Shown: one piece after another, positions 16,188-52,656 of the stretch | Position numbering within the stretch: the first letter of the stretch is position 1 | How the letters are laid out: each line of letters opens with the position of its first letter | Source of the DNA: Candidatus Azotimanducaceae bacterium | GTDB lineage: Bacteria > Pseudomonadota > Gammaproteobacteria > Pseudomonadales > Azotimanducaceae | Direction of reading: 5' to 3' | Length of the DNA: 64,000 nucleotides | Assembly (NCBI GenBank): GCA_965203615.1 | Contig: OZ241900.1 | Location: forward strand, 3,879,350 to 3,943,349 | The notes under the pieces: model-generated | Told to the model about the DNA's origin: nothing | Database searches by the model: none | Seen by the model: the letters and a program-made list of their open reading frames with translations, nothing else | Made by a program: the position numbers and the translations under genes

Positions 16188-16192
16188 CGGGA

Positions 16193-22850: not shown

Positions 22851-22875
22851 TTGAGCGCCTCGAAGGACCAGACCG

Positions 22876-31835: not shown

Positions 31836-33377
31836 TCAACGCCCCATCTCTGCCGGGGAAAGGAGGATCGGAAACTCCGCCCGCACTCGTGCATCGACTT
31901 CGTCGCTGACGTGGCGCGGGACATGGGTGGCGAGGATGTCCCGTGTCTTCTTGATCGCCTCCTGCAGCAGCACCGGCTTGCCCAGTTCCTCCCAGACATT
32001 CGGGCTGGTGCGGTCGCTGAAGTCCGGATAGAAGTACTCGCTTTGCATCACCTGCAGTGTGTTCCCGGAGCCCAGGTAGTGACCCTCCCCGCTGCTGCAG
32101 ATCTGTTCGATCTCTGCGAAGCTCAACGTGTCGGGGTTGACCTCGATGCCGCGGGTAGCGCGCCCGACAGATCCGAGGAGGTCGTTGTCCAGGATGAGGC
32201 TTTCGGGGCACGTGCCCAGCAGGCTGGCGTACATGCCGGCGGACTCATAGACGATGTTCGCCCCGGACAACGCGGCTGACAGCACCGTCGCGGCCCGTTC
32301 CGCGCCCGCCTGGAAGTCCGGAAACTTGGCGTCGCTCATGCCGCAGGCGGTGCCGAAGGGCAGGTCGAGATGATTACCTGCCTGGGCGCAGGCGGCTGAC
32401 AGCAGGCCCTGCTCCGGCGAACCCCCGCTCATCGCCCCGGTGCGCAGGTCCGAAACGAACGGCCAGGCGCCGAGGATGGCCGGTGCGCCGGGTTCGATCG
32501 CGTTCACGTAAACCAGTCCGCCGAGGCACTCCGCCCAGGCTTGAGAGACCGTCCCGGCAAGATAGGCGGGCGCCGTCGCACCGGCCTGACCAGCGGACAG
32601 CAGCAACACCGGCATGCCGCCTTCCACCGCGACCCGCAGACATTCGAGCGCGTCGGTGGCGAACTTGAGCGGCGGCACCACGAAGCAGTTGGACTGGCTG
32701 ACGAAGGGGCGTGCCCGCCACGCGGCTTCGCCGCCGGCGATCATGTGCAGCATCTCGAGGCTCTTCTCGACATGCGGGCCTACCGTCCAACTGGAACCGA
32801 CGTGCTTGCCGGTGCCCATCACGCAGCAGTAGAGGGTATTGATGTCGAGCGCGTAGTTGTCGGGAGCGTCTCGGGGCACGCAGGTCCGCTGGAACATGTG
32901 AATGTGCTCGCAGGTGTCCGCGATGCGCGCCATGTCGTAGAGATCCTGCGCCTCGGAATCCCGGTAGACGCCGTTCTCCGAGTCGGCGACCATGACCGCG
33001 GCGCCGGCGGTGGAGAAGTGCACCCTGGCACCGCTCAGGTCCAGGTCCCACCGCGGATTCTGACCGTGCAGCACCAGGTTCCGCCGGGCCAGTTGCAACG
33101 TCCGTTCGACCAGGCTTCGCGGCATGCGCAAACGCCCGTCGTCGCCGAGCACCGCGCCAACCGCGGTGCAGGTTTCGATGCAATGGGGTGTGGGGTCTGC
33201 GAAACCCACCCGGTCGAGAATCCGGAACGCATTGTCCACGATGGCCTCAACGCCGGCTGCGGACAGGGGCTGAAAATGACCACCGGTGTGTCCCGGCCGA
33301 ACCGGCTTGACCGCTTCGGCCAGGGGCGCGGCGCGCTGGGCCTTGCGCGCCCGTCTACCGCCTGATCGTCGTGCCAT
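31836..33377 (-). CDS. MttB-superfamily (trimethylamine methyltransferase family) protein, non-pyrrolysine type
   Basis: 513 aa from the ATG at 33377. Family-like blocks include 'IVDNAFRILDRVGF', 'PPLKFATDALECLRVAVEGGMPVLLLS', 'GANIVYESAGMYASLL' and 'GHYLGSGNTLQVM'. The reading frame is continuous with no in-frame TAG. Confidence 0.85.
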   Translation of the reverse strand: MARRSGGRRARKAQRAAPLAEAVKPVRPGHTGGHFQPLSAAGVEAIVDNAFRILDRVGFADPTPHCIETCTAVGAVLGDDGRLRMPRSLVERTLQLARRNLVLHGQNPRWDLDLSGARVHFSTAGAAVMVADSENGVYRDSEAQDLYDMARIADTCEHIHMFQRTCVPRDAPDNYALDINTLYCCVMGTGKHVGSSWTVGPHVEKSLEMLHMIAGGEAAWRARPFVSQSNCFVVPPLKFATDALECLRVAVEGGMPVLLLSAGQAGATAPAYLAGTVSQAWAECLGGLVYVNAIEPGAPAILGAWPFVSDLRTGAMSGGSPEQGLLSAACAQAGNHLDLPFGTACGMSDAKFPDFQAGAERAATVLSAALSGANIVYESAGMYASLLGTCPESLILDNDLLGSVGRATRGIEVNPDTLSFAEIEQICSSGEGHYLGSGNTLQVMQSEYFYPDFSDRTSPNVWEELGKPVLLQEAIKKTRDILATHVPRHVSDEVDARVRAEFPILLSPAEMGR

Positions 33378-33432
33378 GGCAGTTCTCCCTAGACGCTGGA
33401 AACATAGCTTACCGAATCCCCACAGGCGCCTC

Positions 33433-35865
33433 TCATGCGCGCAACCGCGCGTTGTCGGGATCCCAGGGACTTTCCTGCACCACGCGCGCGGGGTATCTCG
33501 CACCGAGAATCTCGATGTCGACCGTGGTACCCACTTCGGCAAGCTCGGGGCGCAGCATCGCCAACGCCAGGGACTGCTCCAGCCGGAAGCCGTAGTTGCC
33601 GCTGGTTGCCCGCCCGACCATCTCGCCGTCGACGTAGAGCGGGTTGTTGCCGATGGGATCGGCGTCTTCGGGGCCGTCCACGGCGAGGGTGACGAAGCGG
33701 TTGGCGAAGCCGCGCTGGTGCCACTCGAGGAGCCCGGCGCGGCCCATGAAGTCGCCCTTGTCGAGGCGCACGAAACGGTCGAGGCCGGACTCGAGCGCGG
33801 CGTACTCGATGGACAGTTCCGTCCCGATCATGCGGTAGGACTTCTCGAGGCGAAGCGAGTCCATGGCGCGGATGCCGAAGGGCCTCAAGCCGAGCCCGTC
33901 GCCGGCTTCCATGAGGGCGTCGAAGATGGCGTTCTGGTACTCGATGCCGTGGTGGATCTCCCAGCCGAGCTCGCCCACGAAGTTGAGCCGCAGGAGCTTC
34001 ACGGGGGCGAGACCGATGGTTGCGTCCTTGCCGGTGAGCCAGCGGAACGCGGCGTTCCCGAGGTCGCTGTCGCAGACGCGCGACAGGAGTTCCCGGGACT
34101 TCGGTCCGGCGATGACCAGCACGCCCATCGCGGCGGTCAGGTTCTCGAACAGCACCGAGCCGTCGGCGGGTAGCTGGTGCCGCAGCCAGTCGTGGTCCAG
34201 CCGCTGGAAGGCCCCGGCCGACACCAGGTAGAAGCGATCCGCCGCTTCTCGGTGGATGGTGAACTCGGAGTGCACGCCGCCCAGCGTGTTGAGGGCGTGG
34301 CACAGTCCGATACGTCCGATCCGGGGCAGGCGATTGGCGACGAAACCATCGAGAAACGCCGCGGCGCCGGGGCCGCTGACGCGGGCCTTGGCAAAGGCGG
34401 TCATGTCGAGCAGGCCAACGTTGTCGCGGACATTGCGGCATTCGTCGCCGACGGCCTCGAACCAGCGGGAACGGCGGAACGACCAGTGGTCTTCCCGGGG
34501 AACGCCCTCCGGGGCGAACCAGTTGGGCCGCTCCCAGCCGAACTTCTGCCCGAATACGGCACCCAGGTCGCGCATTCGACCGTAGCACGGCGCCGTGCGC
34601 AGCGGGCGCCCGGCGGGGCGCTCCTCGTCGGGATAGTGCACGGTGAAGACGTTGGCGTAGGCTTCCTCGTTCTTCGCCTTGAGATAGGCGCCGGTGGCGT
34701 AGTCGCCGAAACGGCGCGGGTCGACGCCTAGCATGTCGATACTCGGCTCGCCTTCAACGATCCACTCGGCAAGCTGCCACCCAGCGCCGGCGGCGGCGGT
34801 GATACCGAAGCTGTGGCCCTCGTTGAGCCAGAAGTTGCGCTTGTCCCATGCGGGGCCGACGATGGGACTGCCATCGGGGGTGTAGGCGATGGCGCCGTTG
34901 TAGACCTGCTTGATGCCCAGCTCGGCGAACGCGGGCACGCGGCGAATGGCCGATTCGATGTGGGGTGTCAGGCGGTCGAGGTCGTCGTTGAAGAGTTCGT
35001 ATTCGCTCTGGGCGTCCGGGCCGTCCAGGTAGCAGGCGGGCGCGCCTTTCTCGTACGGGCCTAGCAGCAGCCCGCCGGCCTCTTCGCGCATGTACCAGGA
35101 GCCGTCGGATTCGCGCAGCACGCCCATCTCCGGCAAACCCTCGGCGTGCCGTGCAAGGATGTCGGGATGCGCATCGGTGACGATGTACTGGTGCTGGACC
35201 GGCAGTACCGGGATGTTGAGGCCGACCATGGCGCCGGTGCGCCGCGCGAAGTTGCCCGTTGCGGAGACGACATGCTCTGCGATCCAGTCACCCTTGTCGG
35301 TCCGCACGAGCCATTCGCCGCCGGAAGTCTGTTCGATACCCGTGACACAGGTCTGGCGATGGATGACCGCGCCCTTCGCGCGGGCGCCCCGGGCCAGGGC
35401 CTGGGTGAGGTCGGCCGGCTGGATATAGCCGTCGTCGGGGTGGCGGATGGCGCCGACGAGGCCATCGGTCACCGCCAGGGGCCAGATCTCGCACACCTCG
35501 TCCGGGGTGAGGTACTCGACATTGACGCCGATTGTGCGGGCAACGCCGGCGTACTGGCGATACTCGTCCATGCGGTCGGGCGTCATGGCGAGGCGTATGT
35601 TGCCGACGGTGCGCAGGCCCACGTCGTCGCCTGTCTCCTCCCTGAGCCGGCGGTAGAGATTCACCGAGTACTTGTGAATCTGGCCCACCGAGTAGCTCAT
35701 GTTGAACAGCGGCAACAGGCCGGCGGCGTGCCAGGTCGACCCGGAGGTCAGCTCCTTGCGCTCCAGCAGGGCCACATCCGACCAGCCCTTTGCCGCCAGG
35801 TGATAGAGGGTGGCAACGCCGACCACTCCGCCGCCGATGACCACGACTCTCGCATGTTGCGCCAT
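33433..35865 (-). CDS. Dimethylglycine dehydrogenase-family protein, paralogue 3
   Basis: 'VVVIGGGVVGVATLYHLA...LTSGSTWHAAG', 'FVGELGWEIH'. Its start codon directly abuts the upstream stop (TAAATG). Confidence 0.85.
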   Translation of the reverse strand: MAQHARVVVIGGGVVGVATLYHLAAKGWSDVALLERKELTSGSTWHAAGLLPLFNMSYSVGQIHKYSVNLYRRLREETGDDVGLRTVGNIRLAMTPDRMDEYRQYAGVARTIGVNVEYLTPDEVCEIWPLAVTDGLVGAIRHPDDGYIQPADLTQALARGARAKGAVIHRQTCVTGIEQTSGGEWLVRTDKGDWIAEHVVSATGNFARRTGAMVGLNIPVLPVQHQYIVTDAHPDILARHAEGLPEMGVLRESDGSWYMREEAGGLLLGPYEKGAPACYLDGPDAQSEYELFNDDLDRLTPHIESAIRRVPAFAELGIKQVYNGAIAYTPDGSPIVGPAWDKRNFWLNEGHSFGITAAAGAGWQLAEWIVEGEPSIDMLGVDPRRFGDYATGAYLKAKNEEAYANVFTVHYPDEERPAGRPLRTAPCYGRMRDLGAVFGQKFGWERPNWFAPEGVPREDHWSFRRSRWFEAVGDECRNVRDNVGLLDMTAFAKARVSGPGAAAFLDGFVANRLPRIGRIGLCHALNTLGGVHSEFTIHREAADRFYLVSAGAFQRLDHDWLRHQLPADGSVLFENLTAAMGVLVIAGPKSRELLSRVCDSDLGNAAFRWLTGKDATIGLAPVKLLRLNFVGELGWEIHHGIEYQNAIFDALMEAGDGLGLRPFGIRAMDSLRLEKSYRMIGTELSIEYAALESGLDRFVRLDKGDFMGRAGLLEWHQRGFANRFVTLAVDGPEDADPIGNNPLYVDGEMVGRATSGNYGFRLEQSLALAMLRPELAEVGTTVDIEILGARYPARVVQESPWDPDNARLRA

Positions 35866-36696
35866 TTACCGTTCTCCGTTGACGCTTGGCCGGCGGAACC
35901 AGCGCCACATTTCTTCCCGTGCCGCGCCATCCACGTTCGGCGCGCCGCGGCCCGCGCTGCGGTCCGGTTCCCACACCGAGCGGGTGTCGACGCCGAACCG
36001 GGTCCGCCCCGATGCATCGCTCACGCCGGCGTGCAGGTGTGCGGCCGAAAAGCCTAGCAGTTGGCCCGGTTCAATGAGGACGGGCGCCCGGGGCTGGACG
36101 GGGCGCCTGCAGGCGACCGGAAGGAGCGGATAGCCGTTCTCGCTGCCGTTCCTGAACGCTTCGAAGCTCCATTCACCGCTGTTGTTCGCGATGGGATGGC
36201 GAAAGACATCCGGCCAGAGCAACATCGTGCTGCTCTCGGCCAGTGGATACAGCGGCAACCACCAGTTGATCTGGGCCATGATGCCGGATCCCCACGTGTC
36301 CCTGTGCGGAGGCACCGTCTGCAGGCGCTGGTGTTCGATATCGTCCCTGGACGGGACGACACGCAACCGGATCCGGTCGAGCCAGGTCGCCTCCCGCCGG
36401 TAGCCGATCACCGCCAGCGCGTCCCACCAGTGCCGGGCGACGGCCGCGTCCGTGGCGACTGCCTCGCGCGCCTGCATTGCCAGGCGGCGAAACTCCGCCG
36501 CAGACAGGCGGCGCTCGGCGAAGGCGGGCTGCTCTGCCTCGAATGTTCCCGTGAGGATTCCCCGCACGCGGTCCACCAGGCGCGCGACAGGCCGCAGGCC
36601 GTCAAATACGATCAGTGCGCCGTCGAACAGCGCTTCGCTCAGCGCGCGCGGCGTAGTTCCGGGTTTCCAACGTTCGAACGCCACCGCCGTGCTCAC
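35866..36696 (-). CDS. Conserved-looking hypothetical protein with HxD...H motif (possible Fe(II)/2-oxoglutarate oxygenase fold)
   Basis: 276 aa with 'VPPHRDTWGS' and 'FSAAHLHAGV...GRTRFGVDTR'. It is embedded in the operon with 17-nt and 0-nt gaps to its neighbours. Confidence 0.5.
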   Translation of the reverse strand: MSTAVAFERWKPGTTPRALSEALFDGALIVFDGLRPVARLVDRVRGILTGTFEAEQPAFAERRLSAAEFRRLAMQAREAVATDAAVARHWWDALAVIGYRREATWLDRIRLRVVPSRDDIEHQRLQTVPPHRDTWGSGIMAQINWWLPLYPLAESSTMLLWPDVFRHPIANNSGEWSFEAFRNGSENGYPLLPVACRRPVQPRAPVLIEPGQLLGFSAAHLHAGVSDASGRTRFGVDTRSVWEPDRSAGRGAPNVDGAAREEMWRWFRRPSVNGER

Positions 36697-36713
36697 GCCG
36701 CGAGAACCGGGGG

Positions 36714-39281
36714 CTACAGTCCGATGACCTGTCCCTGCGCGTCAACCCCGACATCGAGAGCGGCGGGGCGGCGCGGCAGGCCGGGCATCGTCATGATGTC
36801 TCCGCAGATGACGACGACGAACCCGGCGCCGGCGGCGAGTCGCGCTTCCCGCACCGGGAGCACGTGGCCTTCCGGAGCACCCATCGCCTTCGGGTCGGCA
36901 GAGAAGCTGTACTGCGTCTTGGCGATGCAGACGGGCAGGCGGCCGTAGCCAAGCGATTCGAACACATCGAGCTGGTGTGCCGCCGCCCGGCTTGTCGATA
37001 TCCCGGAAGCGCCGTAGAAGCTGGCGGCAATCGCTTCGATCTTGTCTCGCAGGGGCATGTCGTCGGGATACAGCAGTTTGATCGTCGGCCTTTCGTCGAG
37101 CCTGTCGAGCACGGCTCGGGCCAGCGCGCTCGCTCCGGCACCGCCGTCTCTCCAGTGGGTGGCGACGGCGGCTTCGACGCCGTGTTGGTTCGCGATCGCC
37201 TGAATGGCGGCGATCTCTTCTTCGGTGTCCGTGTCGAAGCGGTTGATCGCGACCACGGGCGCCAGGCCGAACCTTGCGAGGTTTGCCATGTGCCGTGCGA
37301 GGTTCGGCGCCCCGGCACGAACCGCTGCCGCATCCGGTTTCGCGAGGTCGCGCTGCCCGGTGCCGCCGTGCAGCTTGAGGGCCCGAACAGTGCATACCAG
37401 CACCGCCGCGTCCGGGCGCAGGCCGGACTGGCGGCACTTGATGTCGAGGAACTTCTCCGCGCCCAGGTCCGCCCCGAAGCCCGCTTCGGTAACCACTACG
37501 TCGGACAGCCCGAGGGCCGCCCGCGTTGCGATAACCGAATTGCAGCCGTGGGCGATGTTGGCGAAGGGGCCGCCATGAATGAAGGCCGGGTTGCCTTCGA
37601 GGGTCTGCACGACGTTCGGTTGCAGGGCATCGGTGAGCACGGCGGCCATCGCCCCGTCGACGCCGAGGTCGCTGGCAGTGACCGGCTTGCCGTCGCGGTT
37701 GCGGGCGACGACGATGCGGCCGAGGCGCTGCTCGAGATCGACCCTGTCGCGCGCGAGGCAGAACACGGCCATGACTTCGGACGCGGCGGTGATATCGAAG
37801 CCGCCGGAGCGGTGGGCGCCGCGGCCGAGGTTGAGTTCCACCTCTCGCAACGCGCGGTCGTTGAGGTCCATGACGCGGCGCCAGGAGATCGTCTCCGGAT
37901 CGATGTCGAGCGGGTTTTTCCAGTAGAGGTGGCTGTCGACAACGGCGGCGAGCAGGTTGTTCGCGGTCGAGACGGCGTGCATGTCGCCGTTGAAGTGCAG
38001 GTTGATATCTGTCTCCGGCACGACCCGCGCCCGGCCGCCGCCGGTCGCGCCGCCCTTCATGCCGAAACAGGGGCCGAGGGACGGTTCGCGCAGGCAGGCC
38101 GTGGCGCGCACGCCGAGCAGGTTGAGCGCATCGGTGAGCCCGATGCTGGTGGTGGTCTTGCCTTCGCCCGCCGCGGTCGGCGAGATGGCGGTGACCAGCA
38201 CCAGCTTGCCGTCCGGCGACCTCGCCCGACCGCCTTCCGCGAGCGCCAGCTTGGCCTTGTAGTGCCCGTACGGGGTCAGGAGATCTGCGCCGATACCGAG
38301 GCGTTCTTCGATGAGCGGGATGATCGGCCCCGGGCCATCACCGGAAACATGACGTGCGACTTCGGGGGCCGTCGCGCGGGACCGGGCCACGTCCCGGGTT
38401 GTCGATCCGTTGGCGCGCAGCCAACGGGACGTGCGGGGCAGGCCGCCGAAAGTGAATATGTGAATCCCGGCGAGGGTCGTGCCGGGGGATTCCACGCGGT
38501 ATTGCGCCAGTCCCTGCAGGACATCATCCGGCGACCAGCTCTTAAGCAACCGTATCACGCTGGGTCGCCGCGTCAGCGCCCGCGCGGATGCGCGCACGCC
38601 GCAGCGCGCGGCATAGGCCAACAAGGTGCGTAGCCGGGCCGGGCCGGGCAGGCCGACATGGACCGGCAACGGGCAACCTCGCTCGCGTATCGCCCTTAGC
38701 CACGCGATGGCGGGCGCGGATGCGAACGTGAACTGGGTGACGATCCACATCTCGGTCCCGGTTGCATTGGCGTAGGCGATCTTGTGCGACAGCGCCGCTT
38801 CGAGATCCCCCCGGGTCGCCAGGGGGTGTCCTTCCGGGTAGGCGGCGACGCCGACGCGGCGGAAGCCGTGCTCGACGAGCTTGCCGGACTCGAGCACATC
38901 GAGGGTGTCGTGATAGGGCCCCGCCGCGCGCGCGTGGTCTCCGGCCACCAGCAGCAGTTCGCCCACCCCGGCGTCGGCGAGCTTGCCCAGCCGGTCGTCG
39001 AGTTGCTGCGCGCTTCTCAACAGTCGCGCCGGAAGGTGTGGCACCGGCAGCATGCCCTCGGCACCGAGGCGCTGGCAGGCGGCCACGGTCTCACGCCACG
39101 CAGCGCCCGGGATGGACGGGATATAGACCCGCGTCCCGCGGGGCAGGTAGTCCGTGAGCGGTCCCGTCGAGCCGAGTTGGCGCGGGGAGAGTTCTACCGA
39201 GGCGTGCCGGGCGAGCTCGCGCTGTGCGTCCAGCACGTCGATCGCATTGAGGGCGGCGGCACCGTGGGACAAGGCATCCAT
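36714..39281 (-). CDS. Fusion protein: N-terminal methylenetetrahydrofolate-reductase-like (MetF-family) domain + C-terminal formate-tetrahydrofolate ligase
   Basis: Residues ~1-290 are MetF-like ('LLLVAGD', 'AAYPEGHP', 'IVTQFTF', 'IHIFTFGG'). Residues ~300-855 are FTHFS ('YGHYKAKL', 'SPTAAGEGKTTT', 'NIAHGCNSV', 'PVCIAKTQYSFS'). It is one uninterrupted 855-aa ORF. Confidence 0.8.
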   Translation of the reverse strand: MDALSHGAAALNAIDVLDAQRELARHASVELSPRQLGSTGPLTDYLPRGTRVYIPSIPGAAWRETVAACQRLGAEGMLPVPHLPARLLRSAQQLDDRLGKLADAGVGELLLVAGDHARAAGPYHDTLDVLESGKLVEHGFRRVGVAAYPEGHPLATRGDLEAALSHKIAYANATGTEMWIVTQFTFASAPAIAWLRAIRERGCPLPVHVGLPGPARLRTLLAYAARCGVRASARALTRRPSVIRLLKSWSPDDVLQGLAQYRVESPGTTLAGIHIFTFGGLPRTSRWLRANGSTTRDVARSRATAPEVARHVSGDGPGPIIPLIEERLGIGADLLTPYGHYKAKLALAEGGRARSPDGKLVLVTAISPTAAGEGKTTTSIGLTDALNLLGVRATACLREPSLGPCFGMKGGATGGGRARVVPETDINLHFNGDMHAVSTANNLLAAVVDSHLYWKNPLDIDPETISWRRVMDLNDRALREVELNLGRGAHRSGGFDITAASEVMAVFCLARDRVDLEQRLGRIVVARNRDGKPVTASDLGVDGAMAAVLTDALQPNVVQTLEGNPAFIHGGPFANIAHGCNSVIATRAALGLSDVVVTEAGFGADLGAEKFLDIKCRQSGLRPDAAVLVCTVRALKLHGGTGQRDLAKPDAAAVRAGAPNLARHMANLARFGLAPVVAINRFDTDTEEEIAAIQAIANQHGVEAAVATHWRDGGAGASALARAVLDRLDERPTIKLLYPDDMPLRDKIEAIAASFYGASGISTSRAAAHQLDVFESLGYGRLPVCIAKTQYSFSADPKAMGAPEGHVLPVREARLAAGAGFVVVICGDIMTMPGLPRRPAALDVGVDAQGQVIGL

Positions 39282-39286
39282 GCGCT

Positions 39287-40633
39287 TCAGTCCACGCTGT
39301 CGCGGCCGCGGTTTCGCGCCACTTCCCTGATGTTCGGGTTGACCGAAGGACGAAACGGCACTTCAACCACCTCGCCGGCCACGGGCTCGCCGGGACGTTC
39401 CGCGTATTCGGTCGGAAGATGCACGCGCAACCCCGTTCCGACCTGGCGCATTTCCCAGGGAACATAGGCCAGCGCGATGTTGGTCTCGAGTTCCGGTGAG
39501 AACCACGGCGAGGTGACGTAGCCCACGGGATCGTCCCCGCCGCCGCCGGAGATGAGCCAGAAGTCGTTGGCGTAGTCGGTCACCGGTTTGCCTCCGAAGA
39601 CGATGCCGACGAGCACATTGCGGAACGGGGGGGAACCTGCGTCGATGGCGCGCCGCGCCGCTTCCAGCGCCCGCTTGCCGACGTAGTCCGCCTGCTTTCC
39701 GCGCGGCACCTGGTAGCCGAGATTGCACTGGAAAGGCAGGGTTTCCTGGTCCAGGTCCTGCCCCCAGGACAGGATGCCGGCGGCTATGCGGCGGTGATGC
39801 GCCGGGGCCGTGACCATGAGCTGATGCCGCTCGCCGGCTTCGAGCACCCCGTGCCAGAGGTCTTCCGCGTAGAGGGTGGCGTCCCTGAGGTAGATCTCGT
39901 AGCCCTTCTCGCCGGTGAACCCGGTTTGCGAGACGATGACGTCGCGACCGTTCACCTGCCCTTCCATCAGCCCGTAGTAGGGGATCTCGCGAACCCGCTC
40001 GCCGAACAGGTCCGTCATCAGCGCCTCCGACTTCGGTCCCTGGATCTGCACCGGCGCGACGTCGATCTCGGCGATGGAAACATCCAGGCGCAGGCCCAGG
40101 TTGACGCCCCTGAGCCACATCTCGATGTCGCTGTCGGCGAGCGAGAACCAGAACTCGTCGTCGGCCACGCGCAAGAGCACCGGATCGTTCAGCACGCCGC
40201 CGTCTTCGTTGCACAGGATGACGTACTTGCCGTGCATGGGCGCGATGCGGGCGGCGTCGCGCGTGATGACGTGGTTGACGAACTTCTCGGCGTCCGGCCC
40301 CTTGACCTGGATCTGCCGCTCCACCGCCACGTTCCAGAGCGTCACGTGGTTGACCAGGGCGTCATACTCCACCATGGCGCCGCCGTCTTCCGGACGCACG
40401 TATCCGCGCGGGTGATAGACGCGGTTGTAGACCGTCGCCCGCCAGCACCCGGCTTGCATGGAAAGGTGCCAGTAGGGCGACTTCCGCACCCGGGTTGAGA
40501 TGAGCAATCCAACCGGGGTCGGGCCGGACTGGCGCAGGTTGATGGGAACTTTCCGGTCCGACTGGTCGACGCTCGCGCATTGGCGCAGCTCGGAGTACCG
40601 AACGGCTCCGTTATCGCTGGTGTCAGTGGTCAT
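39287..40633 (-). CDS. GcvT-family aminomethyltransferase (DmdA-like THF-dependent demethylase)
   Basis: 'TVYNRVYHP...LWNVAVERQIQVKGPDAEKF', 'VQIQGPKS', 'SQTGFTGEKGYEIY', 'VGYVTSPWFSPELETNIALAY'. GGGGGAG lies 5 nt upstream of the ATG at 40633. Confidence 0.8.
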   Translation of the reverse strand: MTTDTSDNGAVRYSELRQCASVDQSDRKVPINLRQSGPTPVGLLISTRVRKSPYWHLSMQAGCWRATVYNRVYHPRGYVRPEDGGAMVEYDALVNHVTLWNVAVERQIQVKGPDAEKFVNHVITRDAARIAPMHGKYVILCNEDGGVLNDPVLLRVADDEFWFSLADSDIEMWLRGVNLGLRLDVSIAEIDVAPVQIQGPKSEALMTDLFGERVREIPYYGLMEGQVNGRDVIVSQTGFTGEKGYEIYLRDATLYAEDLWHGVLEAGERHQLMVTAPAHHRRIAAGILSWGQDLDQETLPFQCNLGYQVPRGKQADYVGKRALEAARRAIDAGSPPFRNVLVGIVFGGKPVTDYANDFWLISGGGGDDPVGYVTSPWFSPELETNIALAYVPWEMRQVGTGLRVHLPTEYAERPGEPVAGEVVEVPFRPSVNPNIREVARNRGRDSVD

Positions 40634-40737
40634 TTGGCTCCCCCTGGGCGGAATTCGAGGCCGCCGGTTCGGGGCCATCCTGCACCAGCGGCAACGGCGG
40701 CAGATTGCCTGAAACTCGCTTAACGCATTGCAGCCAA

Positions 40738-40765
40738 AGGCGACATCGAGTAGTCGAGAAACGAC
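40738..40765. promoter_or_regulatory. Copy 1 of a 28-nt direct repeat (AGGCGACATYGARTAGTCGARAARCGAC) in the operon promoter region
   Basis: AGGCGACATCGAGTAGTCGAGAAACGAC. 24/28 identical to the copy at 40880-40907. It lies about 105-130 nt upstream of the GcvT-like start. Confidence 0.4.
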
Positions 40766-40879
40766 GACCCGAAAAAGTCGCGCCTCCCGACCGATTTCGC
40801 GCGGGTTCGCGCCCGCGTGTCGAAGGGCGGATTGGATGGCAGATGGAACCGTGCGTTCGCGTCAACGGACCCCGAAAAC

Positions 40880-40907
40880 AGGCGACATTGAATAGTCGAA
40901 AAGCGAC
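40880..40907. promoter_or_regulatory. Copy 2 of the 28-nt direct repeat
   Basis: AGGCGACATTGAATAGTCGAAAAGCGAC. It is 142 bp from copy 1, just downstream of the GlxA/GbdR-type regulator gene. Confidence 0.4.
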
Positions 40908-40936
40908 ACGTCGAAACGGGCCGATTCACGTCTTTT

Positions 40937-41995
40937 TCAGGGCGCTGGACGACGCTCGTCGGTGGGCCGTTTCCCATACTTCGCGACGTACGACTTGCCG
41001 AACCGCGCCGCGGTCGAGAATCCGCAGCGGGAGGCGATTTCGGTCACCGACATGCTGGTTTGCAGCAACAGCAGGCGACCCTGGTTCAACCGCAGGTCGA
41101 GGTAGTAGCGGGACGGCGTGCAATCCAGGTGTTCGTGAAACAGGCGCTCCAGTTGGCGCGGCGAGATGTCGGTGTACTCGGCCACCTCGCCGAGACTGAG
41201 CGGCTCCTCGATATTGGCTTCCATGAGCGCGACGGCGTCGACCAGCTTCTGCTGGTTCACGGCGCCGAGCCGGTGCTGCAGCGGCGTTCGCTGCATGTCG
41301 TTCTCGGTGCGGACCCGCTCGAGCAGGATCTGCTCCGAGATATCACGCGCCAATCGCTGTCCGTGGGTGGCGCCGACCAGGTTCAGCATGAGATCGATGG
41401 AACTGATGCCGCCGGAGCACGTGTACCGGTCGCGGTCCACTTCGAACAGGCGGGACGACACCTGTACGCGCGGGAATTGCTCGCGCAGGCTGGACAGGTT
41501 CTCCCAGTGGATCGCGCAGCGGTAGCCGTCAAGAAGGCCGGCGGCGGCGAGGAAGTGCGCGCCGGTGCAAAGGGCGCCCAGGGGGACGCGCTTGGCGAAA
41601 CCGCGCAGCGTGTCGAGCAGAACCCGGCTGCAGTGCCGTTCGCAGTGGTAGCCGCCGCAGACGAACAGCATGTCCAGACGGTCGAGAGAACCTGCGTCTC
41701 CGTCGGGCACGAGGTACAGGCCGTCGCTCGATGGCACCGGCTCGCCGTCGAGGGTCAGGCACGTCCAGCGGTAGAGCTGGCGCTCGCTCATCCGGTTGGC
41801 CATGCGCAATACCGCGATGGCGCTGGCCAGCGTCACCATCGTATAGTCGCGCGTCATCAGGAACGCGACGCGCGTCGGCTCGTCATGACATCCGGAAGGT
41901 CTGCCGCCACTCAATGACTGTCTCGACCACCGCTCTTCGAAATCGTCTCCGAGTTTCGCGCTTTCGTTCCTCGCGCACAATGATTGGGCCACCAT
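40937..41995 (-). CDS. GlxA-family (DJ-1/PfpI + AraC HTH) transcriptional regulator, GbdR/CdhR-like
   Basis: 'RVAFLMTRDYTMVTLASAIAVLRMAN', 'LFVCGG', 'ALCTGAHFLAAAGLLDG' and a C-terminal AraC HTH 'LSLGEVAEYTDISPRQLERLF...'. I chose the ATG at 41995. Confidence 0.8.
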   Translation of the reverse strand: MVAQSLCARNESAKLGDDFEERWSRQSLSGGRPSGCHDEPTRVAFLMTRDYTMVTLASAIAVLRMANRMSERQLYRWTCLTLDGEPVPSSDGLYLVPDGDAGSLDRLDMLFVCGGYHCERHCSRVLLDTLRGFAKRVPLGALCTGAHFLAAAGLLDGYRCAIHWENLSSLREQFPRVQVSSRLFEVDRDRYTCSGGISSIDLMLNLVGATHGQRLARDISEQILLERVRTENDMQRTPLQHRLGAVNQQKLVDAVALMEANIEEPLSLGEVAEYTDISPRQLERLFHEHLDCTPSRYYLDLRLNQGRLLLLQTSMSVTEIASRCGFSTAARFGKSYVAKYGKRPTDERRPAP

Positions 41996-42100
41996 TTTTT
42001 TGCCGTCGGGCCGATATGCGGGCCGTTGCAATGGGACGCTGCTAGTAGTAATACGGTTATCCGTAAGCTTGGAGAGGAAGCTATGGGAGGAGGCTACGCG

Positions 42101-45031
42101 ATGAAGACGCGACGCAAGCAGGTCAAGAGACGGGCGTGCACCACGTTCGGCCCCGCAACGTGGAACAGGAGGCCGTTGGGGGTTGCCATCTCGGCCGCAC
42201 TGGTGACCACTGTTGCAGGTGCTGCCGAAGTCGAAGCCGCCGAAGCCGCAGACCAGACGCGGGGCATTGAAGAGGTCATCGTGACGGCCACCAAGCGGGC
42301 CGAATCCATCCAGGACATCGCGGTATCCGTTTCGGCCTTGCAGGGTGAAGATCTCGACGAATTGAGAATCAACAGCTTTGACGACTACGTCAAGCACCTG
42401 CCCAATGTGGTCATGATGGGCGTCGGCCCCGGGCAGAGCGAAATTTATATCCGGGGTGCGGCCACGGAGCAGTCCAAGAACACTATCGCCAGTATCCAGG
42501 GCTCGTCGCCAGCCACCGCCCTTTACCTGGACGAGCAGCCCGTCTCCTTCGGCGGCCGCAACCTCGATGTCTACGTCACCGACATGAGTCGCATCGAGGT
42601 GCTGCCGGGTCCGCAGGGCACGCTGTTCGGCGCCAGTTCCCAGTCCGGGACCGTGCGTCTCATCACCAACAAGCCTGACACTCTGCGGTTCCAGGGTGGC
42701 GTCGGTGTCAGCGCCTCGACCACGGCGGATGGCGGTGTCAGCAACGCCCAGGAAGCGTTCTTCAACATGCCCGTTTCAGACCGTGCGGCGGTGCGGGTGG
42801 TCGGTTATCGCGACAGCCAGGCCGGCTGGATCGACAACATCCCGAACAATCCGGGGAACGGAGGGTTTTCGCCGAGCATAGACCTGCTCAACCGGAACGA
42901 CATATCGGGTGCGCCGGTGCATCCGGACAGCCCATTCGAGGCCGCGGACAACAGCCGCCTGGTCGAGGACGACTTCAACGATGCGAGCTACGCGGGTGCC
43001 CGCGTCAGCCTCTCCTACGACGTCACCGACGATTGGGGAGTACTGGTGCAGCACGTGCAGCAATCCCTGGAGACCGACGGCGTCTTCGCCTACGACCCCA
43101 ATCTCGACGGCGAGAACAGCGTCAACCGGTTTACCATGGACAGCACGGCCGACGACTTCGGGCTGACGACACTGACCGTCAGCGGTCGGGCCGGCATGCT
43201 GGATGTGATCTATGCGGCCGGCTACCTCGACCGGGAGGTGGAGGCTCTCGTCGACTATTCGGACTACACCAACGGCGGCGGGTACCAAGCCTACTACCTG
43301 TGCACCGGCACCAGGGACTGGGGGGGCAACGGATTCGAGGGGTATGGCGGAACCGTGGGATTGAGCGAGTGCTGGGACCCCGAGGCCCAGTACGAAGAGG
43401 AGACCACGAACAGTCGGACTACCCACGAGTTCCGCATTTCCACACCCCAGGAAAACCAGATCAGCGTCACTGCCGGCGTCTACCTCGACGATCAGACAAC
43501 CACTGGCGTGGCTGCCTTCGAGGATGCGGCGACACGGGATGACGGCGACGGCTCCTGGCCCGTGCTTGCCATGATTGGCGACCAGGGAGAAGGGACGAAT
43601 GCGAGTCCCACCGTGCCATTCAACGGCGCGGTCAGTTTCGTCAACGACTACACGCGCAAGATCGATCAGGTCGCGGTGTTCGGTCACGTCGATTTCGCGG
43701 TTTCGGACAGCGTCACAGCAAGCTTCGGCGCCCGCTGGTACGACCTGAACTTCGACTTCAAGGGGGCGAGCAGCTTCTCGTTCGGGTGCAAGTTCGGCAC
43801 GGACAACTGCGATTCCAGCGTTGGCCGGGGCGGTTTTGATGCCACCAGCCGGACCTCCGGGAACAACGTCACCGAACGCCTCAGGGCGCTTGGGCGGGGA
43901 ACGCTTGATGCTCTCACCACGGTGAACCTCAGCGAATGCCGTCCAGACGCGACCAGGTGTCGGGGCGGACATGTGGACATGTTCGGCGGAAGCGGCGCGG
44001 AAGCGGTGCTGGCCGACATTCAGAGCGGCGCCCTGAACGTCGAGAACCTGAACGAGGACGGTGTTCTGAACGAGTCGGACGTCATTCTCCGCGCGTCGCT
44101 CGACTGGAGGGTCAACGACAACCTGATGGTTTTTGCCACTTTCGGTCAGGGTTTCCGGCACGGGGTCACGAACCGGAACGCCGGGAAGGCCGCCAACAAT
44201 CCGCGTGGATTGCCGGTCTACGACGGCTACCGGGTGCCCGCCATCGCTCTCACCGACCACATGGACAACTTCGAACTGGGCATGAAGGGGGACTTCGCCG
44301 ACAACACCCTGCGGCTCAACGCGACGGCTTTCGCCTCGGAGATCACGGACCTGCAGGTCTCCCGGTTCGACCCGGCCAACGTGGCATTCCTGGTGTTCAT
44401 CGAGAACGTTGGAGACGCGGAAGTCCGTGGCGTCGATGCCGACTTCACTTGGCTTGCGATGCCCAATCTCCTGATATCGGGCGCGGTCAGTCTCGTTAGC
44501 AGCGAGATCACCCGCATCAACCCGCAGTTGCGAGAGATAGCCGTGCCGGAGGGCAGCGAACTGCCATTCTCCCCGGGATTCTCCGGTAGCCTGCAGGCGC
44601 GATACGACTTCCATGGAGCGTTCGACGGACAGACCAACGTCTATCTAACCGGCAGCATCAGCTATTCGGGTGAGAGCAAGTCGGGCATTGCTGGCAGCGC
44701 CTACTTTGTTGAGGACACGCTCAAGCGCAGCCATGGCGGACGAGGCTCCGGCCTCAAGATCGCCAATGAAGGCGGCATCTTCGCCGGTGGTAACTGCGGC
44801 ACTTACGACGCGGAGAGCTTCTGCGCGAACGGCCGTTACGTCCAGGGCGCCTATACGCTGCTGGATGTGGCCGTCGGCGTCACGAGGGACAGTTGGAGTG
44901 CGGAACTGTTCGTGGACAACCTCACGGACACGCGTGCGCAACTGCATGTTGATACATTGCAGTACGTGCCGAAGGTCGTGACCAATCGGCCGCGTACCAT
45001 AGGCTTGCGCGTCTCGTACGATTTCGACTGA
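42101..45031 (+). CDS. TonB-dependent receptor (large, ~975 aa)
   Basis: Signal peptide 'GVAISAALVTTVAGAAEVEA', plug 'IEEVIVTATKRAESIQD', and a C-terminal '...RTIGLRVSYDF' barrel terminus. Start is 42101, or alternatively 42083. Confidence 0.85.
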   Translation: MKTRRKQVKRRACTTFGPATWNRRPLGVAISAALVTTVAGAAEVEAAEAADQTRGIEEVIVTATKRAESIQDIAVSVSALQGEDLDELRINSFDDYVKHLPNVVMMGVGPGQSEIYIRGAATEQSKNTIASIQGSSPATALYLDEQPVSFGGRNLDVYVTDMSRIEVLPGPQGTLFGASSQSGTVRLITNKPDTLRFQGGVGVSASTTADGGVSNAQEAFFNMPVSDRAAVRVVGYRDSQAGWIDNIPNNPGNGGFSPSIDLLNRNDISGAPVHPDSPFEAADNSRLVEDDFNDASYAGARVSLSYDVTDDWGVLVQHVQQSLETDGVFAYDPNLDGENSVNRFTMDSTADDFGLTTLTVSGRAGMLDVIYAAGYLDREVEALVDYSDYTNGGGYQAYYLCTGTRDWGGNGFEGYGGTVGLSECWDPEAQYEEETTNSRTTHEFRISTPQENQISVTAGVYLDDQTTTGVAAFEDAATRDDGDGSWPVLAMIGDQGEGTNASPTVPFNGAVSFVNDYTRKIDQVAVFGHVDFAVSDSVTASFGARWYDLNFDFKGASSFSFGCKFGTDNCDSSVGRGGFDATSRTSGNNVTERLRALGRGTLDALTTVNLSECRPDATRCRGGHVDMFGGSGAEAVLADIQSGALNVENLNEDGVLNESDVILRASLDWRVNDNLMVFATFGQGFRHGVTNRNAGKAANNPRGLPVYDGYRVPAIALTDHMDNFELGMKGDFADNTLRLNATAFASEITDLQVSRFDPANVAFLVFIENVGDAEVRGVDADFTWLAMPNLLISGAVSLVSSEITRINPQLREIAVPEGSELPFSPGFSGSLQARYDFHGAFDGQTNVYLTGSISYSGESKSGIAGSAYFVEDTLKRSHGGRGSGLKIANEGGIFAGGNCGTYDAESFCANGRYVQGAYTLLDVAVGVTRDSWSAELFVDNLTDTRAQLHVDTLQYVPKVVTNRPRTIGLRVSYDFD

Positions 45032-45046
45032 TGGGCTGAGGCCCAT

Positions 45047-45078
45047 GCAAGGGGCAGTCGGTGTAGCCTGCCCCTTGC
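45047..45078 (+). terminator. Stem-loop, candidate intrinsic terminator after the receptor gene
   Basis: GCAAGGGGCAG (45047-57), a 10-nt loop, then CTGCCCCTTGC (45068-78). This is a perfect 11-bp stem followed by a weak T-containing tail (GCAATCGATTTG). Confidence 0.45.
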
Positions 45079-45189
45079 GCAATCGATTTGTCGTTGGACC
45101 GAAGAACGGCAGCGTCGATCCGGTGGGGACCGATGCGGTTCCAGCACCGGTGGTATCATCCGGACCGGCTCCGCACCTGACGCCGGCCG

Positions 45190-47229: not shown

Positions 47230-47256
47230 ACAGCGCATCGAGCGCGCATCGGACCA

Positions 47257-51499: not shown

Positions 51500-51572
51500 G
51501 GCGTGCCACTCCTGCCGCCTCCGAAAGGTGATGATGGCGGCGGCGGACAGGGTGTCAAGCGATAACGCGATG

Positions 51573-52568
<996 letters not shown>

Positions 52569-52656
52569 CCAGGCCGCTCCTGCGTCTGGGCTCGCGCGGG
52601 AGGTTATCAGGTTCCCTGCCGGATATGGTCAACGGGATCGAGACCGACACTTGAAC

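Follow-up and report, generated by a model that had tools for sequence, protein, structure and literature searches.

A conserved tetrahydrofolate-linked operon core with an appended MttB gene in a marine or sponge-associated gammaproteobacterium: a predicted route from a quaternary amine to glycine

Glycine betaine and other methylated osmolytes are a major currency of carbon, nitrogen, and energy between marine hosts or algae and bacteria, and it is still being settled which genes mark the breakdown of these compounds. Here, we analyze a 64,000-nucleotide stretch of contig OZ241900.1 (assembly GCA_965203615.1), called the window below. Its host is an aerobic marine or sponge-associated gammaproteobacterium near 'Candidatus Azotimanducaceae' (Pseudomonadales), aerobic because oxygenases and a sarcosine oxidase are encoded. 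Between positions 31836 and 40633, five minus-strand open reading frames (ORFs) encode, in the order of transcription, a protein related to GcvT and to the demethylase DmdA, a fusion of a methylenetetrahydrofolate reductase (MTHFR) with a formate-tetrahydrofolate ligase (FTHFS), a 276-amino-acid protein that we call OXY, a flavoprotein of the dimethylglycine dehydrogenase (DMGDH) family designated DMGDH1, and a member of the MttB methyltransferase superfamily. The initial annotation of this DNA had taken the five genes for a self-contained operon that wires MttB to the next demethylation step and to the oxidation of methyl-tetrahydrofolate (methyl-THF). The question raised by this locus is whether the five genes form one unit, and what such a unit would do.

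We consider it probable that a supercluster of approximately 35 kb (from about 7.5 to 42 kb of the window) has the five genes as its promoter-proximal operon and that, in this supercluster, a quaternary amine of the glycine betaine type would be converted stepwise to glycine, with all of its methyl groups passing via tetrahydrofolate (THF). In other words, a catabolic island of far greater extent has the operon at one end. In the scheme that we propose, MttB would use the quaternary amine to methylate the Co(I) form of a corrinoid protein (MtgC), a second methyltransferase (MtgD) would move the methyl group from MtgC to THF, and oxidized cobalamin would be repaired by the activase RACo together with a DUF1638 protein. 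The MTHFR domain, predicted to be of type 4, would then convert methyl-THF to methylene-THF, a FolD encoded elsewhere would carry methylene-THF on to 10-formyl-THF, and the fused FTHFS domain would free formate and ATP and regenerate THF. The last two methyl groups would be taken off as methylene-THF by DMGDH paralogues and sarcosine oxidase. The GcvT-like protein and OXY belong to an older conserved core that exists without MttB, and most probably they add a second, corrinoid-independent C1 input to the same THF pool.

The operon and its conserved core

All five frames are free of internal stops, with a GC content at third codon positions (GC3) of 0.82-0.88 in the called frame, and the gaps of 5, 17, 0, and 55 nt by which the five genes had originally been recognized as an operon proved to be exact. 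The possibility that the 276-amino-acid ORF is a spurious product of high-GC DNA was rejected in view of its 878 homologues, its GC3 of 0.82, and its confidently predicted fold. Simple consensus scans detected no sigma-70-like promoter and no convincing terminator inside the operon; across positions 31000-42600 they returned no promoter-like site and three terminator-like sites, against 5.6 expected, a result that speaks neither for nor against co-transcription.

For the gene order in relatives, one genome per species was scanned with a profile of OXY, which yielded 80 loci. The closest of these lie in metagenome-assembled genomes (MAGs) of marine and sponge-associated Gammaproteobacteria, several of which are named 'Candidatus Azotimanducaceae' or Pseudomonadales. 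The order GcvT-like gene, metF, FTHFS gene, OXY gene, and DMGDH gene was found again in 22 loci of the Gamma- and Alphaproteobacteria, four of them from outside the Gammaproteobacteria (one alphaproteobacterial MAG, one MAG of an unclassified member of the Pseudomonadota, and the cultured bacteria Cucumibacter marinus DSM 18995 and Yunchengibacter salinarum). Recurrence of the core in so many related loci lies far outside what chance would produce. The DMGDH gene directly follows the OXY gene in 30 of the 80 loci. The MttB gene, on the other hand, follows DMGDH in only four of the 29 loci with enough downstream sequence, and these four are the closest relatives; in most other gammaproteobacterial loci, the genes next after DMGDH1 are one for an HD-domain protein and soxB. 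Thus, the expectation that the gene order would be conserved holds for the stretch from the GcvT-like gene to DMGDH, and the full five-gene order is confined to the closest relatives. Judged from these comparisons, the conserved unit is the four genes upstream of MttB, which also occur without it, and MttB is a recent passenger at the end of an older conserved operon in one small lineage.

Directly upstream of the first gene, as had been noted before, stands a gene for a GlxA/GbdR-type regulator of the AraC family. It has the expected architecture of a DJ-1/PfpI domain followed by an AraC helix-turn-helix domain and scores 386.9 bits on the NCBIfam GbdR model NF052371, below the cut-off of 480, and we refer to it as GbdR-like. 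In gammaproteobacterial relatives, the operon is likewise preceded by this gene. In the DNA that separates the regulator from the first gene, the element CGACYAYTCRATGTCGCCT occurs in two copies, at 40908..40879 and 40768..40733, approximately 140 bp apart, and a third conserved block, TTCAGGCAATCTGCCGCC, lies at 40713..40696. In an alignment of six genomes, both copies of CGACYAYTCRATGTCGCCT and TTCAGGCAATCTGCCGCC are near-invariant, and the rest of the intergenic DNA has diverged. These blocks are putative GbdR-type operator and promoter elements, and they would fit a regulated promoter ahead of the first gene. On the other side of the regulator, at 41984..49041, are genes for a TonB-dependent receptor and one or two TPR-sulfotransferases, which in many genomes are neighbors of either the MttB cluster or the GbdR-like regulator; such a neighborhood is seen in L001-L019, L083, L085, and L086 (L numbers denote our loci), and the receptor family is present in 16 of the OXY-seeded loci.

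In the product of the second gene of the operon, residues ~20-300 resemble type-4 MTHFR, and residues 323-855 make up the FTHFS. The N-terminal 320 residues score 165 bits to PDB 7xg9, the MTHFR of Sphingobium lignivorans SYK-6 (S6MTHFR), versus 43 bits to the type-2 enzyme of T. thermophilus, and they match the Pfam MTHFR family weakly (25.5 bits). The FTHFS part reaches 778.7 bits on NF010030, over the equivalog cut-off of 652, and has the P-loop GEGKTT. Among the motif residues of S6MTHFR, Leu48-Pro49 (I57-P58 in the window protein, a conservative change), Phe215 (Y223, still aromatic), Cys219 (C227), and Phe269-Gly-Gly-Leu (F278-G-G-L) are kept, and the positions of Pro49, Cys219, and Phe269-Gly-Gly are kept in 38-42 of 42 relatives. 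Two other positions are not kept: Pro268 corresponds to Thr277 (with Pro in 18 of the 42 relatives), and Arg78 to Leu87. Closer to S6MTHFR than to type 2, and adjoining a GcvT-family gene in 22 loci, the N-terminal domain is predicted to be a type-4, methyl-THF-oxidizing MTHFR; the fusion had been seen initially, and its first half, then described as MetF-like, can now be assigned more sharply. S6MTHFR, of type 4, oxidizes methyl-THF and makes hardly any use of NADH (Yu et al., Commun Biol 2025, PMC11868366), and the SYK-6 order ligM-metF-ligH corresponds to a THF-dependent demethylase, an MTHFR, and an FTHFS (PMC11868366). If the domain is of type 4, then the first three genes of the operon would mirror the ligM-metF-ligH logic for a nitrogen-compound pathway.

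The same paper mentions neither betaine-linked type-4 members nor fusions. The fusion is a single ORF in 13 of the 22 loci and two adjacent genes in the other nine, and only one has the length of a fusion among the 150 best MetF-like family representatives from a library that comprises 1.8 billion proteins. The view that such fusions are common was rejected on these counts, and the MTHFR::FTHFS fusion is rare and lineage-specific. It puts the step at which the oxidation of methyl-THF begins and the step at which it ends into physical connection on a single polypeptide.

The fourth gene product, DMGDH1, has the Pfam domains DAO, FAO_M, GCV_T, and GCV_T_C and matches human and rat DMGDH with 637 bits over residues 4-799, by which it can be placed in the dimethylglycine dehydrogenase family. 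Two further paralogues, DMGDH2 and DMGDH3, are encoded in the window; DMGDH1 and DMGDH2 are 36% identical, and the three paralogues share 36-43% identity. The genes for the heterotetrameric sarcosine oxidase (sox) come after DMGDH1 in most relatives. Just past soxG, at 4257..7003 on the plus strand, there are genes for a flavin monooxygenase (FMO/Baeyer-Villiger-like) and a Rieske oxygenase alpha subunit, the latter weakly similar to the glycine betaine monooxygenase GbcA (100 bits versus a cut-off of 670).

MttB, its corrinoid partners and its substrate

For the MttB protein, the family assignment is straightforward: it scores 358 bits on PF06253 against a cut-off of 25, over profile positions 1-489 of 500. 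It was correctly called non-pyrrolysine at the outset, since its gene has no in-frame TAG and Met347 aligns with the pyrrolysine (Pyl) of Methanosarcina barkeri MttB; on the Pyl-MttB model TIGR02369, it scores 309 bits, under the equivalog cut-off of 525. The role of MttB homologues in aerobic proteobacteria had been regarded in the initial annotation as largely unresolved, a statement that is now outdated. In the aerobic Ruegeria pomeroyi DSS-3, the demethylation of glycine betaine depends on MtgBCD, and this system, with MetF2, RamA, and DUF1638, is induced on glycine betaine and genetically required (Mausz et al., PNAS 2025, PMC12478193). During growth of this bacterium on betaine, choline, and carnitine, two pfam06253 proteins, RamA, DUF1638, a MetF paralogue, and FTHFS are induced (PMC12478193). 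In marine Gamma-, Alpha-, and Deltaproteobacteria, moreover, Mtg genes are often co-located, and even operonic, with genes for the later demethylation steps, B12 reactivation, and C1 oxidation (PMC12478193). The coupling of MttB, corrinoid protein, THF, and DMGDH is real, yet it belongs to a kind of system that has already been described.

The operon itself cannot be called self-contained, because the MtgC, MtgD, RACo, and DUF1638 genes lie 13-17 kb away from it and FolD is encoded outside the window. As anticipated in the initial annotation, the best candidate partner of MttB is the corrinoid protein at 18264..18986. It scores 191 and 168 bits on the NCBIfam MtgC models, both under the cut-offs, and over the aligned stretch it is 92% identical to the corrinoid protein of an MttB operon at L082, a locus in the same genome as L007. 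Identities to the L082 genes over the aligned stretches are 92.5% for the MtgD-like gene and 89% for the RACo gene. For the small ORF next to them, the assignment to PF13769 (Virulence_fact) is taken from the record of its orthologue. A part in B12 reactivation has been proposed for DUF1638 (PMC12478193). All of these components (a pfam06253 protein, MtgC-like, MtgD-like, RACo, and DUF1638) are present in the window, and in L082 and L084 they are encoded with MttB in a single operon. This synteny argues well for the corrinoid protein as the probable methyl acceptor of MttB.

The loci of other MttB orthologues vary in their arrangement. In L082 (MttB 92% identical), the gene ends an operon of the order mtgC-DUF1638-small ORFs-pterin methyltransferase-RACo-MttB, which is divergent from two DMGDH paralogues. 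L084 (87%) has a corrinoid operon of the same type plus an MTHFR. In L085 and L086 (76%), a GbdR-like regulator, MttB, and a corrinoid protein stand beside FTHFS, two DMGDH paralogues, and a TonB receptor, and in L083 (78%) a corrinoid protein, an aldehyde dehydrogenase, and a GBBH-like dioxygenase are encoded nearby. A pair of DMGDH-family genes flanks the MttB/corrinoid genes in L082-L086. These contexts, in orthologues of 76-92% identity, suggest that the coupling of MttB to DMGDH-type enzymes and methyl-THF oxidation is conserved, although gene order is not. To that extent the proposed wiring of MttB to DMGDH and methyl-THF oxidation stands, with the exception that the first gene and the then unassigned third gene are parts of a separate module. 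In L084, the corrinoid operon itself holds, at 5491..7000, a DUF5981 gene and a gene for an MTHFR of 342 amino acids; this MTHFR has no tblastn match above 40 bits in the window, the N-terminal domain of the fusion included (E limit 1e-4), and it appears to be a different type of MTHFR that does an equal job beside MtgD.

Comparison of the window with L007 and L082 shows that a block of corrinoid and DMGDH genes is inserted between DMGDH1 and the HD gene. From 33377 down to 14145, its order is MttB, TonB receptor, DMGDH2, DMGDH3, hydrolase, TonB receptor, AraC regulator, and mtgC-DUF1638-mtgD-RACo. It is a circular permutation of the block that the sister genome has at another chromosomal site, cut between RACo and MttB and with three genes added, and the permuted order suggests a relocation via a circular intermediate or a two-step rearrangement. 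Three genes at 19304..23823, for an AraC-family regulator (QhpR-like, 91 bits), a TonB-dependent receptor, and an alpha/beta hydrolase (Abhydrolase_3), lie between the corrinoid operon and DMGDH2/3 and are absent at the equivalent place in L082 and L084.

Such a history raises the possibility that a recent rearrangement brought MttB next to the operon as a neutral side effect, with no regulatory coupling. MttB comes after DMGDH solely in the four closest relatives, the orthologue elsewhere ends the corrinoid operon, and the inserted block resembles a circular permutation of the corrinoid operon block. However, three of the four relatives retain a spacer of 50-56 nt that includes a good ribosome-binding site, no terminator is seen, and elsewhere the MttB clade always stands beside DMGDH paralogues, often also beside GbdR, MTHFR, or FTHFS. 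We regard a purely neutral adjacency as quite improbable, and because the clade is found beside DMGDH paralogues in the other genomes as well, the functional link of MttB would hold whatever the gene order.

Against PDB sequences, MttB scores 193.6 bits to MtgB, 184 bits to Pyl-MttB, and 136 bits to 4yyc, the first two being nearly equal. Its clade comprises more than 120 clusters at >=74% identity, all of 513-514 amino acids and recorded merely as 'methyltransferase' or 'trimethylamine methyltransferase family protein', and the clade is a distinct and highly conserved one of marine Gammaproteobacteria. In MtgB of Desulfitobacterium hafniense, mutagenesis and a ligand-bound structure have shown that Y97 and F356 hold the ammonium group by cation-pi interaction and that R312 and H348 hold the carboxylate (PMC13080624). 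The R312L and H348E changes abolish activity, and R312 is kept in MtcB, MtpB, MthB, and MtyB (PMC13080624). In our multiple alignment, Y97, R312, H348, and F356 correspond to G125, G342, E378, and L386 of the window MttB, and the same G/G/E/L combination was found in all 20 clade members sampled; the S. meliloti-type structure 4yyc keeps the Y, R, and H of the MtgB site. The identification of MttB with MtgB as a family assignment was therefore rejected, as all four binding residues differ, and we keep the alternative that MttB works like MtgB on some methylammonium substrate. The caution of the initial annotation, which left the substrate of MttB undecided, was justified, given that none of the four glycine betaine-binding residues is kept.

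The amine on which MttB acts, whether quaternary or otherwise methylated, may not be glycine betaine and would then probably lack a carboxylate bound in the manner of MtgB, and we treat this as a serious possibility, if a somewhat less probable one than its opposite. Choline or another cationic or neutral methylammonium compound would be a candidate, and the DMGDH paralogues would take the resulting tertiary and secondary amines. The invariance of G125, G342, E378, and L386 points in this direction, as do the inactivity of the MtgB R312L and H348E variants and the retention of R312 by enzymes for carboxylate or phosphate substrates, namely MtcB, MtpB, MthB, and MtyB (PMC13080624). The near-equal scores to MtgB and Pyl-MttB and the low identity of the three DMGDH paralogues, suggestive of several amine substrates, agree with it, and one MttB orthologue lies near genes for an aldehyde dehydrogenase and a GBBH-like dioxygenase. 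Yet the context fits glycine betaine: a GbdR-like regulator adjoins the orthologue in L085/L086, DMGDH1 is very close to true DMGDH, and SoxBDAG is adjacent. In addition, the MtgB proteins of the aerobic R. pomeroyi may bind their substrate differently from the Desulfitobacterium enzyme. Taken together, the GbdR-like regulator, what looks like a true DMGDH, and Sox still favor a betaine-type substrate for MttB.

Several points nevertheless weigh against our preferred reading of the five genes as the head of a pathway from a glycine betaine-type amine to glycine. All four betaine-binding residues of MtgB are replaced in the MttB clade, with loss of the essential carboxylate-binding Arg, and glycine betaine may not be the substrate of MttB. 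In the fusion, Pro268 and Arg78 of the type-4 signature are replaced by Thr and Leu. A single transcript that spans the 55-nt gap between DMGDH1 and MttB is presumed. Finally, among the approximately 55 larger ORFs of the window that were scanned (small ORFs were scanned incompletely), no FolD, no BCCT transporter, and no ABC betaine transporter was found, in agreement with the first reading of this DNA, and the larger ORFs thus offer neither FolD nor an inner-membrane betaine transporter.

The GcvT-like protein, OXY and the HD protein

The product of the first gene has the Pfam domains GCV_T and GCV_T_C, and its best PDB match is DmdA (3tfh, 154 bits). It scores 264.7 bits on the DmdA model NF009133, below the cut-off of 410, and has Phe where DmdA 3tfh has the Trp specific for dimethylsulfoniopropionate (DMSP), which is W197 in Pelagibacter ubique DmdA (PMC7487153). 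The candidate identity as DmdA was rejected on both grounds. As GcvT, it reaches 158.6 bits versus a cut-off of 300 and 138.9 bits versus 235.85, and this candidate was likewise set aside. The protein also resembles the GcvT domain of trimethylamine N-oxide (TMAO) demethylase, with 165 bits on the model and 105 bits to 9q59. Its homologues form more than 6000 clusters, very conserved and all named merely 'aminomethyl transferase family protein', and orthologues of 81-82% identity adjoin DMGDH, with or without FTHFS, in loci without OXY. It is best described as a predicted GcvT-family, THF-binding protein and sister of DmdA that is neither DmdA nor GcvT.

One explanation is that the GcvT-like protein works without a corrinoid and methylates THF directly at the expense of an onium compound, with 5-methyl-THF as the product, as DmdA and LigM do. 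It would act on glycine betaine, or else on a betaine or sulfonium compound related to it, and the first three genes would be a nitrogen-compound version of ligM-metF-ligH; DmdA/LigM-like methyl transfer to THF would explain why the gene stands ahead of a type-4 MTHFR. DmdA is the nearest characterized relative, the gene is immediately upstream of type-4 MTHFR and FTHFS in 22 loci, following the SYK-6 logic (PMC11868366), the 81-82% identical orthologues pair with DMGDH even without the oxygenase, and the protein is very highly conserved. Yet it fails the DmdA equivalog cut-off and has lost the DMSP-binding Trp, and the methyl-THF made by MtgBCD would account for a type-4 MTHFR equally well. 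In R. pomeroyi, furthermore, an mtgC mutant stops consuming glycine betaine although the GcvT-family proteins SPO0544 and SPO1628 are induced (PMC12478193), and if either of these is an orthologue, direct demethylation of glycine betaine by the GcvT-like protein is excluded. Literature searches for a characterized GcvT-type or 2-oxoglutarate (2OG)-type betaine demethylase, and for SPO0544, SPO1628, and SPO0635, returned nothing relevant. We consider a direct methyltransferase of this kind unlikely on the present evidence.

OXY, described at first as an unassigned HxD...H protein, can now be given a probable class. At default thresholds, it has no Pfam or NCBIfam match, and a profile search against PDB sequences gave no real match; PF05721 (PhyH) is recorded for two of 120 listed homologues, and TIGR04324, a model of 2OG-Fe(II) oxygenases, gives weak matches for 35 of 37 family members. 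In the family alignment, H131, D133, H220, H222, R233, and R239 are invariant, and H131-x-D133 and H222, with R233 approximately 11 residues past the distal His, make up the signature of Fe(II)/2OG enzymes. An AlphaFold2 model (pLDDT 92) has PtlH, SptF, SyrB2, and AndA as its top Foldseek matches (E ~4e-8, probability 1.0, TM 0.45-0.5). The motif noted initially is thus invariant, and the model points to an Fe(II)/2-oxoglutarate-dependent oxygenase with the double-stranded beta-helix of a distant PhyH-like fold.

It is possible that OXY and the GcvT-like protein act together as a two-component oxidative N-demethylase, in which OXY would hydroxylate an N-methyl group and the GcvT-like protein would trap the formaldehyde as methylene-THF. 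In DMGDH, SoxA, and Tdm, a flavin or metal domain and a GcvT domain cooperate in formaldehyde capture. Both genes are adjacent or co-operonic in loci of Gammaproteobacteria, Alphaproteobacteria, Hyphomicrobiaceae, and Spirochaetia, the similarity to the GcvT domain of TMAO demethylase would agree with such a role, and the invariant W135, W145, W146, W161, and W176 of OXY are compatible, speculatively, with an aromatic cage for a cationic head group. However, each gene also occurs without the other: OXY with MetF and DMGDH and no GcvT-like gene within 10 kb in L036-type loci, and the GcvT-like gene with DMGDH and no OXY within 10 kb in L087 and L088. A two-component enzyme would also leave the adjacent methyl-THF-oxidizing MTHFR unexplained, and we think it improbable.

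A third member of this group is the HD-domain protein, whose gene is located between DMGDH1 and soxB in 11-12 gammaproteobacterial loci. The family profile matches PhnZ (E 2.6e-7) and TmpB (E 1.1e-5) as its sole significant PDB relatives, the third match being non-significant (E 0.2), and the match covers only about 47 residues around the HD motif. H55, H79, D80, H90, H113, H138, and D152 are invariant in the family alignment; these His and Asp residues are enough for six metal ligands, with a spacing that differs from that of PhnZ. A single-sequence structure model was unusable (pLDDT 44.7). In six loci from Spirochaetia MAGs (L050, L056, L059, L060, L062, and L063), the genes for HD, GcvT-like protein, OXY, and a Zn-alcohol dehydrogenase stand in a row (~6700..11900 in L050). 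HD, GcvT-like, and OXY are on the same strand in all six, a divergent gene for a GBBH-like TauD dioxygenase of the TmpA type adjoins, and four of the loci (L050, L059, L060, and L062) also have a DMGDH-like gene at a distance of 3-5 kb upstream. Because the same row occurs in Spirochaetia, the HD/GcvT-like/OXY module is conserved across phyla. The first and third genes of the operon belong to this separate conserved module with a PhnZ/TmpB-like HD protein, which is not simply the next demethylation step of the initial annotation. In the gammaproteobacterial locus L006, a truncated copy of the HD gene at 14170..14731 (query residues 2-144) lies beside a remnant of 33 residues that matches the C-terminal end of the GBBH-like dioxygenase from Spirochaetia at 85% identity, and the two look like a decayed TmpA/TmpB-like pair.

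The HD protein suggests another role for OXY, namely that the OXY hydroxylase and the HD oxygenase carry out a two-step oxidative cleavage of the PhnY*/PhnZ or TmpA/TmpB type. Acting on N-methylated 2-aminoethylphosphonates, such a pair would set free phosphate together with glycine betaine, dimethylglycine, or sarcosine (C-C bonds might also be cleaved in an analogous way), and the GcvT-like and DMGDH enzymes would then demethylate the product. Four pathways that combine a 2OG dioxygenase with an HD oxygenase are known; the pairs cleave aminoethylphosphonates, and TmpA/TmpB yields glycine betaine (PMC10574752). PhnZ and TmpB as the only significant relatives of the HD family, the single-strand row in six Spirochaetia loci, the place of the HD gene between DMGDH1 and SoxB, and the full HxD...H...R signature of OXY all agree with this idea. 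On the contrary, the HD match is short, the structure model gave no support for the fold, the HD gene of the window is 23 kb from the OXY gene and on the opposite strand, and alphaproteobacterial loci have OXY without an HD gene. The TmpA-type dioxygenase of the Spirochaetia may be the real partner of HD, and neither a phosphonate transporter nor a sign of the Pho regulon was seen. It is conceivable that OXY and HD form a feeder route of a phosphonate or similar type, and we rate oxidative cleavage by this pair as a doubtful proposition.

The genes discussed so far are collected in Table 1. Three TonB-dependent receptors are interspersed among the corrinoid, DMGDH, and sox genes of the window. 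Farther out, at 49060..53770, there are an Asp/Arg hydroxylase-like gene, genes for a PhyH-family dioxygenase and a PdxA-like dehydrogenase, and then one for a radical SAM protein, with no evident link to the operon.

Table 1. Positions of the genes and sites in the window that are treated in the text
Feature	Position	Strand	Remarks
GcvT/DmdA-like gene	39287..40633	-	ATG start, GGGGGAG ahead; 448 aa, as in homologues
MTHFR::FTHFS fusion	36714..39281	-	855 aa; FTHFS 787 bits (Pfam)
OXY (276-aa protein)	35866..36696	-	GTG start
DMGDH1 (DMGDH-family flavoprotein)	33433..35865	-	810 aa; ATG abuts TAA of upstream gene
MttB (non-pyrrolysine)	31836..33377	-	513 aa; ATG start, GGGAGAA ahead; PF06253
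GbdR-like AraC-family regulator	40937..~41995	-	PF01965 DJ-1/PfpI and PF12833 HTH_18; start 41995, 41914, or 41857
Putative operator/promoter region	40696..40908	-	Conserved blocks between regulator and first gene
DMGDH2	26411..28858	+	Pfam
DMGDH3	23984..26404	+	Tandem with DMGDH2; tblastn 90% identity to L082 paralogue
MtgC-like corrinoid (B12-binding) protein	18264..18986	-	Pfam B12-binding_2 and B12-binding
DUF1638 protein	17449..18330	-	PF07796; 84% identity (aligned stretch) to L082 protein
Small conserved ORF, ~98 aa	17135..17428	-	Between DUF1638 and pterin-methyltransferase genes; tblastn 85% to L082
Pterin-binding methyl-corrinoid:THF methyltransferase (MtgD/MeTr-like)	16193..17125	-	PF00809; NF005719 359 bits, cut-off 259
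RACo/RamA-type reductive activase	14145..16316	-	RACo_C_ter, Raco_middle, RACo_linker, Fer2; start probably near 16163
HD-domain protein (PhnZ/TmpB-related)	12698..13279	+	Pfam HD; best PDB matches TmpB 6npa (E 4e-5) and PhnZ
soxB, soxD, soxA, soxG (heterotetrameric sarcosine oxidase)	7495..12620	-	Pfam DAO (SoxB), SoxD, SO_alpha_A3 and GCV_T (SoxA)
SoxG-like ORF	7495..8004	-	tblastn

Comparison with known systems

The window unites two modules that have been described only recently, a corrinoid module of the MtgBCD type and a module of demethylase, type-4 MTHFR, and FTHFS, with DMGDH and sarcosine oxidase, and in these uncultured sponge-associated or marine Gammaproteobacteria the united modules appear to form a single regulon. 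What is new here is the MTHFR::FTHFS fusion, which is rare, a large clade of aerobic MttB proteins that have none of the known betaine-binding residues, and a conserved trio of uncharacterized proteins (the DmdA-sister GcvT, the PhyH-like 2OG oxygenase, and the PhnZ/TmpB-like HD protein) within the catabolism of betaine to glycine. For annotation, this means that an MttB gene next to DMGDH should not be read as MtgB, since there is a large marine clade in which none of the published betaine-binding residues occurs. The three very conserved, unnamed families travel with DMGDH across phyla, and their assignment would improve the metagenomic markers of osmolyte and possibly of phosphonate turnover. 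Tentatively, and with the odds against it, the trio may be an undescribed, corrinoid-independent entry to the betaine-to-glycine pathway; separately, the MttB clade may represent a new specificity among aerobic corrinoid methyltransferases. If the trio is such an entry, either the GcvT-like protein would be a fourth type of glycine betaine demethylase, after BHMT, GbcAB, and MtgBCD, or the OXY/HD pair would free methylated glycines from methylated aminoethylphosphonates or related compounds. The upside of this locus therefore lies in its uncharacterized core and not in MttB.

Among known systems, PhnY*/PhnZ and TmpA/TmpB share with the window the pairing of an Fe(II)/2OG hydroxylase with an HD-domain diiron oxygenase, in the case of TmpA/TmpB with glycine betaine as the product. 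OXY, however, is neither PhnY*-like nor TmpA-like (TauD) in sequence, the similarity of the HD protein is short, and the two genes are not adjacent in the window, where no phosphonate-related genes were seen. For the first gene, DmdA of Pelagibacter ubique (3tfh) is the closest characterized relative, with the same two-domain GcvT fold family, and it sets a precedent as an enzyme that methylates THF directly at the expense of an onium compound. The window protein differs from it in its score on the DmdA model (265 versus 410 bits), in the Phe for Trp, and in its context of dimethylglycine and sarcosine genes in place of dmdBCD.

The ligM-metF-ligH genes of SYK-6 resemble the operon in their order. 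In both, a GcvT-family THF-dependent enzyme, a methyl-THF-oxidizing MTHFR, and a formate-THF ligase are encoded in the same order, and the window MTHFR (165 bits) keeps the [L/I]-P, the aromatic residue at 215, Cys219, and F-G-G-L. The substrates, on the other hand, are expected to be methylated nitrogen or onium compounds in the window and are aryl methyl ethers in SYK-6. The first enzyme of the window is a DmdA sister and not LigM, MTHFR and FTHFS are one polypeptide, and Thr and Leu stand in for Pro268 and Arg78.

The anaerobic non-Pyl systems, MtgB of D. hafniense and MtpB, MtcB, MtyB, and MthB of Eubacterium limosum, share with the window the MttB superfamily, the non-Pyl residue at the Pyl site, and a dedicated corrinoid protein, methylcorrinoid:THF methyltransferase, and reductive activase. 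The host of the window differs in being aerobic and in linking flavin- and oxygen-dependent demethylases to the corrinoid step, and its MttB departs from MtgB at all four binding positions, including the Arg that the others keep. The MtgBCD system of R. pomeroyi is a further counterpart. There are differences: in the window, MttB is detached from the corrinoid genes and appended to the DMGDH operon, the MetF partner is fused to FTHFS, MttB is without the betaine-binding residues of Desulfitobacterium MtgB, and no gene for MtgE (the homocysteine-binding module tied to a dual role in methionine synthesis) or another S-methyltransferase was found among the scanned ORFs. At the level of families, nevertheless, the parts list is the same, with a pfam06253 protein, a B12-binding protein, a pterin-binding methyltransferase, RamA/RACo, DUF1638, and a MetF paralogue, and both systems are found in an aerobic host and are co-located with genes for the demethylation of dimethylglycine and sarcosine.

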